Positions 58,216 through 60,021 of a stretch of DNA of 64,000 nt are shown here, in pieces. A program made the translations under genes and the position numbers. Within the stretch, counting starts at the first letter, position 1; every line of letters begins with the position of its first letter. A model generated the notes under the pieces. That model was not told the origin of the DNA, searched no databases, and saw nothing but the letters and a program-made list of their open reading frames with translations. The stretch is taken from positions 64,901-128,900 of the forward strand of contig JACESU010000002.1 of the NCBI GenBank assembly GCA_013911655.1, given 5' to 3'. This DNA is from Alphaproteobacteria bacterium (GTDB taxonomy: Bacteria; Pseudomonadota; Alphaproteobacteria; Caedimonadales; UBA1908).

Positions 58216-60021
58216 TTACCGGTAGCGTCTACCATCTTCAGGACCACCGTGGTTTCGGTAATGTTCCTCACCTTTTTGAAGTAATTCGTCATACGTAATC
58301 TTGTAACCTGATTCAATTTCATAATGCGTAATAAGATCTTTGTTTAAGGCCAGATAAAGAGCCGCATCAAAGTCCTCAGGCATTGTAAAAGCGTCTCCTA
58401 TAGGGGCACGTTTTTCCAAACCGTCGTACTTATAGGTGCGATCTTCTAGAAATCCGACAGTCGTGTAGTGTCGACTTCCTTCGTGCATAGCATCATGAGA
58501 CTCTTTACCGTTCATAAGGATTTTTAAATCCGGATTCAAGGCGAAATACATGAAGTACCCATAACGAAAGTCACGTGGGATTGGAAGGATGTATCTTCTA
58601 TTGGTGTCCTTGAATCCAGTGTTTTTGTAATTAAGTTTAGCAAATTCAATGGGGTCTACATTCTTTGTTTCTGCCTCAAGTGCGATGTCGGGATTAAGGC
58701 GTAGATAGCCCTTGGGCGAAAAATCATACGGTAACGTTACCACATCTGGTCGATGTTTTGTGTTGCCCAGCATAAAGGATCGTGCTTCATTTTTACCATG
58801 TTTGTAAAAGTGCTCTCTCGCTTGATGAAGAGCGTCTCTAAGGGTGCCGTTTCGAAAGACATTTTGCAGATCTGGGTTTAACGCTAAATATACGGCTGGA
58901 TTAAGTGTGTCTTGAGTGCCGAGAGCAGGGTCACCTAAACCCTCACTTAAATAGATGCGTCTTTCTTCAGTGACAGCTTGTGTTTCTTTGTGACTCATTG
59001 CTTTTGCAAGGGCCATAGCCCAGGGAAGATCTGCATAGGCCTCAAGAATATCTGGATTCAACGCAAGATAAGAAATGGGATTGAATTTCTTATAAAGAGG
59101 TTGTAAATCGGGCGCAGCGTGTGGTGTAAAATCCCATTGGTCTTGGGTTGCGACTTCAAAGCGTTGAACTGTGTCAGGAATAATGCTTCGTGCGATCAAG
59201 CTGTTTTCGGTGTCGCGCAACCAATTGATTTGTTGCGACATAGGGGTGTAGTGTCCAGAACCGTATGGATTGCTGTCTTCGTCGTAGATGCGTGCCATCA
59301 CACCAATGTAGGCATAGCCACCTTCTTTGAGCGGCATGAAAAGTCCAGATCCACTATCTCCTCCCACAGGTACCATCAGGGACGGGTCTGTCGAGGGGTG
59401 GTCTGTGTAAGTACGGATTTCTGCTTGAGCAAACTCATCGTCATCAAATGTTGTTTTGGCGAGGTTTGTTTTTCCATAAAGCATAGAAGAATCGACGTTT
59501 GAGAATTTGCTGTGAAAATTACCAAGTCTGATAAAGGGTGAGTGACTAAGGCTATGAGCATAGTAAGAGCCTTCTCGGTCAGGCAGCTCCTTAGTGGGGT
59601 CAAACTTCCCTAAGGGACAAGCGACACGTCCACCGTCTGGATGGGTGACGTCTTCAGACAAAATATACACCGTTAGATCGCAAGAAAAAAGGTCATGGAA
59701 TGTTTGCCCATCACCCATAACCTTAGGGTGTTCAATGACATGGATAATGCGATATTCTTTTCCGTAGAACGATATGTTCGTATGGTAGGGCATGTCTTGC
59801 CCCTTAAAGTTTCCGTGGGTTGCTGTGACCGCAAGGCGAGGACTGATGAGCGTGGCTTGAATGTCATCAGAAAAACCCATATGAAAACCGTGGTTAAGAA
59901 CCACCCCACTTTTGAGCTGATTCTCATCATCGACATTATAAAAATGACCAGCAGAAACACTTTGATAAAAAAAAGAAGTACTCATCAAAATCCCGAGAGG
60001 GATCTTTAGAAAATTACGCAT
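58216..60021 (-). CDS. secreted chymotrypsin-fold serine-protease-like protein with five C-terminal YLxLNPD...HY..G..E.R.Y repeats (cluster gene A)
   Basis: ATG 60021 has GGAG 6 nt upstream, and the signal peptide is MRNFLKIPLGILMSTSFFYQSVSA. Ordered His/Asp/Ser motifs are LAVTATHGN (His92 in ORF-track numbering), FHDLFSCDLTVYIL (Asp133 or Asp138) and GGDSGSGLF (Ser246), with chymotrypsin-like spacing. The C-terminal ~290 aa form 5 tandem repeats. Confidence 0.85.
   Translation of the reverse strand: MRNFLKIPLGILMSTSFFYQSVSAGHFYNVDDENQLKSGVVLNHGFHMGFSDDIQATLISPRLAVTATHGNFKGQDMPYHTNISFYGKEYRIIHVIEHPKVMGDGQTFHDLFSCDLTVYILSEDVTHPDGGRVACPLGKFDPTKELPDREGSYYAHSLSHSPFIRLGNFHSKFSNVDSSMLYGKTNLAKTTFDDDEFAQAEIRTYTDHPSTDPSLMVPVGGDSGSGLFMPLKEGGYAYIGVMARIYDEDSNPYGSGHYTPMSQQINWLRDTENSLIARSIIPDTVQRFEVATQDQWDFTPHAAPDLQPLYKKFNPISYLALNPDILEAYADLPWAMALAKAMSHKETQAVTEERRIYLSEGLGDPALGTQDTLNPAVYLALNPDLQNVFRNGTLRDALHQAREHFYKHGKNEARSFMLGNTKHRPDVVTLPYDFSPKGYLRLNPDIALEAETKNVDPIEFAKLNYKNTGFKDTNRRYILPIPRDFRYGYFMYFALNPDLKILMNGKESHDAMHEGSRHYTTVGFLEDRTYKYDGLEKRAPIGDAFTMPEDFDAALYLALNKDLITHYEIESGYKITYDELLQKGEEHYRNHGGPEDGRRYR
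58219..59085 (-). repeat. five tandem ~45-55-aa protein-level repeats in gene A
   Basis: FNPISYLALNPDILEAY...EERRIY / LNPAVYLALNPDLQNVF...EHFYKHGKNEARSF / FSPKGYLRLNPDIALEA...LNYKNTGFKDTNRRY / YFMYFALNPDLKILM...RHYTTVGFLEDRTY / FDAALYLALNKDLITHY...EHYRNHGGPEDGRRY. Confidence 0.85.

Follow-up and report, generated by a model that had tools for sequence, protein, structure and literature searches.

Tandem three-helix repeats at the ends of exported proteins of an alphaproteobacterium, a possible address tag for envelope glycans

Why should neighbouring genes of one bacterial genome, encoding proteins with differing heads, all close with the same short repeat? The question is raised by a stretch of 64,000 nucleotides of an alphaproteobacterial genome assembled from a metagenome (locus tag prefix H2057, scaffolds named HARO18-1; contig JACESU010000002.1, positions 64,901 to 128,900; the whole stretch is called the window in the following), in which three genes, here named A, B and C, end in tandem copies of a helical unit. 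As set out below, the repeat is outside every described family that could be tested, and it constitutes a large family without a curated model. The function that we favour, tentatively and with a rough probability of 0.38, is that of a multivalent address tag for a repetitive envelope glycan, which would hold its cargo at the cell surface.

Thirteen units, their age, fold and family

All 13 copies of the repeat that an earlier note on this DNA had counted, five in A, three in B and five in C, were recovered by a regular-expression scan and alignment, each in exactly its claimed place (Table 1), and no further copy was found in the other open reading frames (ORFs) of the window. The units are 45-51 residues long with a start-to-start spacing of 49-67 residues, and in A, B and C alike the stop codon directly follows the last unit. 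Are these units more than chance similarities? In a cross-profile test a hidden Markov model (HMM) was built from the units of one protein and compared with the other two proteins and with 600 shuffled sequences. The B-only HMM, made from three units, scored 85.8 bits with A and 79.8 bits with C and recovered five of five units in each, and the A-only and the C-only HMM gave B 86 bits each, whereas the top scores of the shuffled controls with the three cross-profiles were only 6.2-9.9 bits. The repeats are thus significant.

A unit-by-unit score matrix bears out the proposal that the copies of A and C are positionally orthologous, as the best partner of each A unit was the C unit at the same position (5/5) and the reverse was true for four of the five C units. 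In both proteins copy 1 indeed lacks the HY..G core and copy 4 shows the YF(M/L)Y(F/L)ALN variant. In addition, the five-unit frame is collinear in 20 homologues of A and C down to about 33% identity, one subgroup having grown to eight units. This position-matched pairing together with the collinear frame indicates that the array is older than the duplication that separated A and C, as had been suggested. Within the arrays no tandem repeat was found at the DNA level, so the repetition is ancient and visible at the protein level only, and a recent DNA duplication is ruled out as origin of the arrays.

How is a unit built? AlphaFold2 (AF2), run on the alignment of the A family, yielded a mean predicted local distance difference test score (pLDDT) of 79 for the whole protein and of 86 for the array alone, the latter with a predicted template modelling score (pTM) of 0.57. 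Two short helices per unit had been expected by the earlier note; AF2 gives three, two short ones and one of 11-20 residues (usually 14-16). The first extends over xxxYLAL and is interrupted at N, and the second starts at P-D (PDLxxAF), so that N-P-D forms a cap. After a loop follows the third helix, which bears A-x-x-H-Y and terminates near the conserved G, whereupon the E-G-R-x-Y stretch leads into the linker. The units are predicted with confidence and the linkers with low confidence, resulting in a beads-on-a-string arrangement. According to this model, the unit is an independently folding three-helix mini-domain that is connected to its neighbours by flexible linkers.

The consensus derived from 799 units of the top 150 family proteins is F-[DN]-x3-Y-L-A-x-N-P-D-[LV]-x2-A-F-G...A-x2-H-Y-x3-G-x2-E-G-R with a modal period of 41 residues and a conservation of 94-100% at each of F, Y, D, H, G, E and R. 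It could be imagined that such beads are a passive spacer or stalk, adding only length, solubility or protease resistance, an explanation that agrees with the AF2 arrangement, with conserved residues that look structural, with the variable copy number and with the occurrence of the repeat inside phage tape-measure proteins (see below), whose job is length. However, H, D, E and R are conserved to 94-98% in these 799 units, whose sources include viruses and distant phyla; nor would a spacer have to stand at the extreme protein end, as the array does in ten out of ten genes of the island described below, and the association of the repeat with glycan enzymes and exported proteins is non-random. 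That the repeat does nothing but add length is, on balance, unlikely. As to the conserved residues themselves, binding of Ca2+ in the manner of RTX proteins was rejected because there is no acidic loop and only one D and one E show conservation, beside an invariant R; the invariant D, H and E may be candidates for a structural metal site.

Has the repeat been described before? Among 1.84 billion proteins clustered at 50% identity, the profile of the 13 units matched 2,797 cluster representatives at E<=1e-3, of which 677 reached E<=1e-10 and 40 reached E<=1e-30, and each of the 150 best listed representatives contains 2-15 matched stretches. Scanning A, B and C against Pfam and NCBIfam gave no match at E<=1, and NCBIfam had no model for ten canonical family members. 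There is only a weak, partial overlap with Pfam DUF5338 (PF17273), a single-copy model of 69 positions whose function is not annotated, whereas the element of the window is a tandem repeat. Positions ~21-53 of this model align to one unit (YLxxNPDVAAAV...HY), and the distant family members P0114, P0141 and P0183 reach 28-46 bits solely through summed partial matches to these positions (P0114: 46.1 bits against a gathering cut-off of 25.9); no single stretch passes the cut-off alone in any protein tested, and A, B and C do not match DUF5338 at E<=1. Sequence searches of the PDB with A, B, the 13-unit profile and a family-wide three-unit profile found nothing significant, the 'YIALNEDL' matches in major histocompatibility complex class I entries being due to chance, and the best Foldseek match of the array model in the PDB (three-helix helix-turn-helix domains, E 3.2) is not meaningful. 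A word-indexed homologue search with the 13-unit profile returned a single match, the query being too short for it, tblastn of P0277 against GenBank phages gave none, and in the full text of the open literature neither a mention of the repeat nor anything relevant on DUF5338/PF17273 was found. The repeat thus has no curated family name, and the earlier note could attach none; its HMM matches no characterised domain with a defined function.

Carriers in this genome

Gene A encodes, in this order, a Sec signal peptide, a divergent S1 serine protease and the five-unit tail. The likely starts of A and B (Table 1) are deduced from the signal peptides, as the longest ORFs overrun both (that of A starts at 60090 and has 624 codons for amino acids), and N-termini equivalent to the signal peptide of A are conserved in 17 homologues. 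The catalytic triad and the GDSGS motif are invariant in 21 sequences (H69, D115 and S223 in the numbering of P0153) and follow the canonical S1 order. In the PDB the model of the A/C family finds chymotrypsin and trypsin at E ~4e-7 with a TM(target) of 0.55-0.62 (Foldseek), and of the 589 matches at E<=1e-3 the best 50 listed are all chymotrypsin-fold S1 proteases or complexes thereof. Pfam Trypsin (PF00089) and Trypsin_2 do not match A/C at E<=1, and NCBIfam likewise fails on the head. Since the full triad and the chymotrypsin fold are present and yet no Pfam or NCBIfam model matches, the heads of the A/C family, 21 proteins from alphaproteobacterial assemblies only, represent a divergent S1 subfamily without a model; they resemble peptidase S1 in triad and fold, but are too divergent for Pfam Trypsin and carry the repeat tail in addition. 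Gene C is a paralogue of A that is cut by the window end and contributes the C-terminal end of its protease head and its five-unit tail. Downstream of the stop codon of A, in the intergenic region, a (CAT/CAC)n-like short tandem, TCATCATCACCA in 2.4 copies (58090-58118), has no obvious role.

Gene B encodes a signal peptide, a head of ~545 residues without family match and a three-unit tail. The motifs YMLGDG[SN]C..YAMGTTP, HL[VI]HRG and [DN]H[FY]NRLV of its head are invariant among B and two other repeat-tailed proteins, P0038 and P0067, the heads of which are 54% and 28% identical to that of B. These motifs resemble the Cys and His boxes of OTU cysteine proteases (deubiquitinase-like), in which the catalytic Cys lies in D-G-x-C and the catalytic His further downstream, a reading that none of the tools confirmed: the head has no match in Pfam, OTU included, and none by sequence in the PDB with either the single sequence or a profile. 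Between the convergent stops of B and C lies a hairpin with a strong 11-bp stem (62481-62506, + strand), probably a bidirectional terminator.

Table 1. Genes, protein features and repeat units in the window
Feature	Position	Strand	Remark
Gene A (H2057_05370, MBA4750033.1)	58216..60021	-	likely ATG start 60021, 601 aa
A predicted Sec signal peptide	59950..60021	-	MRNFLKIPLGILMSTSFFYQSVSA, cleavage before GHFYN; read by eye
A chymotrypsin-fold (S1) protease head	59116..59949	-	triad; Foldseek against PDB
A His92	59815-59817	-	catalytic triad
A Asp138	59677-59679	-	catalytic triad
A Ser246	59353-59355	-	catalytic triad, within GDSGS
A array, 5 units	58219-59085	-	regular-expression scan and alignment
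A unit 1	58945..59085	-	residues 336-382; degenerate, HY..G core lacking
A unit 2	58768..58905	-	residues 396-441
A unit 3	58585..58722	-	residues 457-502
A unit 4	58426..58569	-	residues 508-555; YFMYFALN variant
A unit 5	58219..58371	-	residues 574-624; protein end ...GRRYR, stop 58216-58218
Gene B (H2057_05375)	60250..62451	+	likely ATG start 60250; longest ORF from 60139
B signal peptide	60250-60321	+	MKKRILPLVALSGFFCLGVSLCSA, cleavage before S; Sec-type
B head	60250-61959	+	motifs shared with P0038 and P0067
B head motif region	60544..61260	+	YMLGDGSC..YAMGTTP, HL[VI]HRG, DH[FY]NRLV
B GDGSC	60544-60558	+	
B DH[FY]NRLV	61240-61260	+	
B array, 3 units	61960-62448	+	regular-expression scan and alignment
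B unit 1	61960..62094	+	residues 608-652
B unit 2	62107..62253	+	residues 657-705
B unit 3	62308..62448	+	residues 724-770; protein end ...GRAYK, then stop
Gene C (H2057_05380; full protein P0173, 600 aa)	62885..64000	-	paralogue of A, cut by window end
C array, 5 units	62888-63745	-	regular-expression scan and alignment
C unit 1	63605..63745	-	degenerate, as A unit 1
C unit 2	63428..63565	-	
C unit 3	63248..63382	-	
C unit 4	63089..63232	-	YFLYLALN variant, compare A unit 4
C unit 5	62888..63037	-	protein end ...NRRYQ, then stop

The three genes are the first of a run of ten repeat-tailed genes that continues past the window end (locus L085), with S1 proteases as heads in six, B-like heads in two and DUF2608 in two. 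All ten encode a Sec-type signal peptide and close the ORF with 2-8 units; the second B-like gene is an ORF of 1195 codons with a called product of 1176 aa. A patatin gene adjoins the run. The GC content is 0.41-0.45 in the last 6 kb of the window, which contain A, B and C, as compared to ~0.50 in the housekeeping genes upstream that make up the rest of the window (nuo operon, ubiquinone genes). Six further repeat proteins map to the same genome, giving at least 16 repeat-tailed genes in total, and the copy number among the repeat proteins of the genome varies between 2 and 10 units.

Does the tail then serve as a secretion or sorting signal, recognised in this lineage by a dedicated machine for export across or anchoring in the outer membrane? 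Varied heads that have an N-terminal Sec signal and close with the same type of tail at R-x-Y-[KRQ] would follow the same logic as the C-terminal domains (CTDs) of type IX secretion system (T9SS) substrates and the tags of exosortases and sortases. However, the earlier statement that the array always ends the protein holds for this lineage and fails for the family, in which the array reaches the protein end in about one third of the top 150 representatives and is N-terminal or internal elsewhere. Moreover, it stands upstream of genuine tails of the type I secretion system (T1SS; ...DFLV) in RTX proteins and is present in cytoplasmic enzymes and viruses, Pfam and NCBIfam detect no known sorting domain, and a variable copy number would be atypical for such a signal. 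A sorting function is quite improbable in our view. Of the candidate roles named earlier, an association with the surface or with polysaccharide is rather favoured over a secretion signal by the N-terminal or internal arrays of other taxa, the arrays upstream of T1SS signals and those in cytoplasmic enzymes.

Other repeat proteins of this genome could bring eukaryotic hosts into play. The adjacent genes H2057_03350 (P0010/P0300) and H2057_03355 (P0011), outside the window, encode a signal peptide, a Cys-rich region, repeats and an acidic tail, a layout that is also found in P0003 and P0045, and the acidic ends of these four proteins bear tryptophan (...DDDEWSD, ...DSWSGDDD, ...DDDDW). A proline-rich stretch is clear in P0011 and P0045, the latter with a WH2-like segment, and proteins of this type are similar in layout to the proline-WH2-acidic end of WASP-type actin nucleation promoters. 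None of P0010/P0300, P0011, P0003 and P0045 is matched by Pfam WH2; the model does match, as an actin-binding motif, the C-termini of P0041, P0063 and P0073, repeat proteins from other sources. The tail could therefore be imagined as a host-directed module that binds a eukaryotic membrane lipid, the cytoskeleton or a glycan and thereby targets effectors in or on the host cell. The same genome tags an OTU-like protein and these proline-rich, acidic-tailed proteins, the three WH2 motifs are confirmed by Pfam, and the patatin and DUF2608 genes adjoin the island. Yet family members abound among free-living cyanobacteria, rhizosphere bacteria, phages and cytoplasmic O-antigen enzymes, settings that offer no eukaryotic target, and even the association of this genome with a host is only inferred, which together leave little likelihood for a host-directed role.

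Carriers elsewhere

Which other proteins carry the repeat? When 119 top representatives were scanned for partner domains, with the 25 commonest families listed per table, RTX repeats were present in 15 and subtilases in five, and further partners were M10/serralysin, reprolysin-like and M30 peptidases, Ig-like/Big, PPC and CARDB domains, a lipase and a cyclophilin. Peptidase_M23, PhoD and VanW appear among the shorter repeat-bearing matches. A crude test assigned a Sec-type N-terminus to at least 54 of 147 representatives. A scan of genome collections that used too narrow a pattern yielded six loci, with proteins of ~1,070-1,165 aa from Niveispirillum, Asticcacaulis, Azospirillum and Hydrogenophaga that contain five units near the C-terminus; the Asticcacaulis carrier and a 683-aa Niveispirillum relative are RTX proteins that also contain Calx-beta (loci L088 and L092), and several RTX members have their classic T1SS tail downstream of the repeats.

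The repeat is also found on plasmids of Azospirillum, Bradyrhizobium, Komagataeibacter, Trichormus and others, where the features annotated over it include an M10 metallopeptidase and a hemolysin-type calcium-binding region on the one hand and, linked to glycans, glycosyltransferases (GT2/4/61), class I S-adenosylmethionine (SAM) methyltransferases, RgpF, a GH99-like protein and a lipopolysaccharide (LPS) biosynthesis protein on the other. That alphaproteobacteria and cyanobacteria have similar units in secreted proteins and in glycosyltransferases, as the earlier note stated, is confirmed by these annotated plasmids and by named proteins of both groups. The glycan enzymes that contain the repeat or are encoded beside it belong to O-antigen and capsule clusters, and some of these enzymes are encoded on plasmids of E. 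coli and Enterobacter. One O-antigen glycosyltransferase of Azospirillum (Az39 p5) has six units of 38 residues at its N-terminus, a variant that is well recognised by the family-wide HMM (E 3e-35) and weakly by the window-only HMM. In a capsule-type ABC-transporter cluster of the E. coli plasmid pYLMB20b (L093, 4523-9684), a SAM methyltransferase of 912 aa closes with two units, and the product of the next gene, a GT2 enzyme, has one unit at its N-terminus, which could be a split gene or head-to-tail docking of consecutive enzymes.

Viruses provide a third group of carriers. A single-pattern scan of IMG/VR gave 85 confirmed loci. Phage tape-measure proteins of 1,300-1,943 aa have 2-6 units in the C-terminal half (L010 733-6561, L015 1819-6498, L033 1-3903), which in L010 and L015 stand at the very C-terminus; the protein of L010 bears an SLT lytic transglycosylase domain as well. 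Some 25-30 IMG/VR contigs encode a family of ~950-aa proteins with one unit at about residue 700-750 and without PHROG or Pfam match. In a P22-like prophage of Aquamicrobium zhengzhouense (L002, 5844-8771) two adjacent repeat proteins are encoded between head/adaptor genes and a putative tailspike gene, and in another genome (L004, 7215-8513) repeat ORFs stand between a phage lysozyme and a Peptidase_S74 tail-fibre gene. Furthermore, the array model matches giant-virus proteins of BFVD (E 8e-6 to 0.15, 15-24% identity), namely Klosneuvirus-like glycosyltransferases, an AlgX/AlgJ-like protein, a dTDP-sugar reductase and an FkbM methyltransferase, from viruses that include Fadolivirus, Indivirus and Hyperionvirus; the AT-rich family members P0008, P0040, P0065 and P0077 may be of similar origin.

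This range of carriers raises a further explanation, namely that the repeat is an element for protein-protein docking or self-association, by which proteins that share this tail would associate among themselves or on one shared protein scaffold, for instance in a complex of glycosylation enzymes (cytoplasmic or within virus factories) or in an extracellular protein matrix. Units at the facing termini of the consecutive pYLMB20b enzymes and on several different sugar-pathway enzymes of giant viruses would be readily explained in this way, as would one tail common to many different heads, and small helical modules commonly serve as docking elements. On the other side, neither a partner nor a scaffold has been identified, the copy number is highly variable (2-15), and a partner common to phage tape-measure proteins and T1SS-secreted adhesins is hard to imagine. 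Docking is possible, though we regard it as doubtful.

The address-tag reading and known systems

How would an address tag for an envelope glycan work? The array would be a C-terminal tag shared by Sec-exported proteins with differing heads, and its tandem units would bind a repetitive glycan polymer of the envelope, each weakly and jointly strongly. The ligand might be the cell's own surface polysaccharide or LPS O-chain and, in some relatives, peptidoglycan. Tagged enzymes would in this manner be kept at the cell surface instead of diffusing away. That the units bind a ligand, which ligand this is and that the cargo is retained at the surface are inferred from one tail on many heads, the variable copy number and the bead-like structure, as well as from surface glycan as the common thread between the carriers, which build it, are exported to it or, as phage parts, cross it. 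The 2-15 copies, and in the AF2 model the confident units with low-confidence linkers, fit binding by avidity, and the tape-measure proteins, the SLT-bearing carrier and the prophage tail and lysis carriers can be counted for the tag as phage proteins that meet the envelope.

Several points weigh against this proposal. No match to carbohydrate- or wall-binding families was obtained by sequence or structure. Most of the invariant residues (F, Y, L and A, with NPD and G at helix ends) look structural, so that they do not point to a conserved ligand site. Overall the arrays are mildly acidic, with an isoelectric point of 5.6-6.9 and one at 9.3, which makes plain electrostatic binding of anionic polymers unlikely, and this mode of binding was rejected. 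In glycosyltransferases and methyltransferases the repeat is presumably cytoplasmic, a setting that protein docking or membrane recruitment would fit equally well. Finally, the proposal does not account for the passage of the Sec-exported proteins across the outer membrane.

In a wider version of the address-tag proposal, which we consider rather unlikely, the repeat would be a general address module for glycan polymers on both sides of the envelope. The growing polymer would then retain the O-antigen and capsule enzymes and the fibril-glycosylation enzymes of giant viruses, while the finished one would retain secreted enzymes, phage tail proteins and RTX adhesins. If true, this alphaproteobacterium would display a whole set of effectors (S1 proteases, OTU-like proteases, DUF2608 proteins and WASP-like actin nucleators) non-covalently on its surface, by a system that corresponds in Gram-negative bacteria to choline-binding, GW and SLH modules. 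This might also explain how actin nucleators that lack a membrane anchor stay on the surface.

What is gained by defining the repeat? Thousands of sequence clusters are without a curated model, a solved structure or literature that could be found, and the repeat links exported proteases and adhesins, O-antigen and capsule enzymes, phage tape-measure proteins and glycosylation enzymes of giant viruses; a defined model would sharpen the annotation of many 'hypothetical proteins'. If binding to a surface polymer is true, the repeat could provide a portable surface-display tag for Gram-negative bacteria and a way to learn how the surface of this alphaproteobacterium, which is uncultured and probably host-associated, is armed. 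As a mere spacer it would be of interest to curators alone.

Several known systems invite comparison. RTX repeats (PF00353) in T1SS substrates often share a protein with the repeat, as mentioned for 15 of the 119 representatives, but form a Ca2+-binding beta-roll of nine-residue units, whereas the repeat is helical with ~41 residues; A, B and C contain no RTX nonapeptides and use Sec signal peptides. The T9SS CTD, PEP-CTERM, GlyGly-CTERM and LPXTG tags are alike in that one C-terminal element is found on many unrelated exported proteins. They are, however, single-copy and consist of a beta-sandwich or of a transmembrane helix plus motif, while the repeat is multi-copy, helical and across taxa not confined to the C-terminus, and the Pfam and NCBIfam models for T9SS CTD, PEP-CTERM, GlyGly-CTERM, LPXTG and T1SS C-terminal signals do not match.

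Closer in design are SLH, choline-binding repeats, CW_7 (Cpl-7), LysM, PG_binding_1 and GW, tandem modules on varied exported or phage heads that bind a repetitive polymer of the envelope by avidity. Like the repeat, they are short modules in variable tandem number on varied heads, and CW_7 and PG_binding_1 are small three-helix units as well. There is no match in sequence or structure to SLH, choline-binding repeats, CW_7, LysM, PG_binding_1 or GW, from which the motif F-x4-Y-L-A-x-N-P-D...H-Y-x3-G-x2-E-G-R differs, and the Pfam HMMs of SLH, LysM, PG_binding_1, CW_7, CW_binding_1 and SH3b detect none of these domains in A, B and C, nor are they among the 25 commonest families listed for the 119 representatives. 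In our analysis, the presumed principle, tandem address repeats on exported enzymes, is thus already well known, and it is the repeat family itself that appears uncurated. In comparison to SLH, choline-binding repeats and LysM, the repeat is mainly Gram-negative and has an unusual spread, extending to cytoplasmic enzymes of glycan synthesis and to giant viruses.

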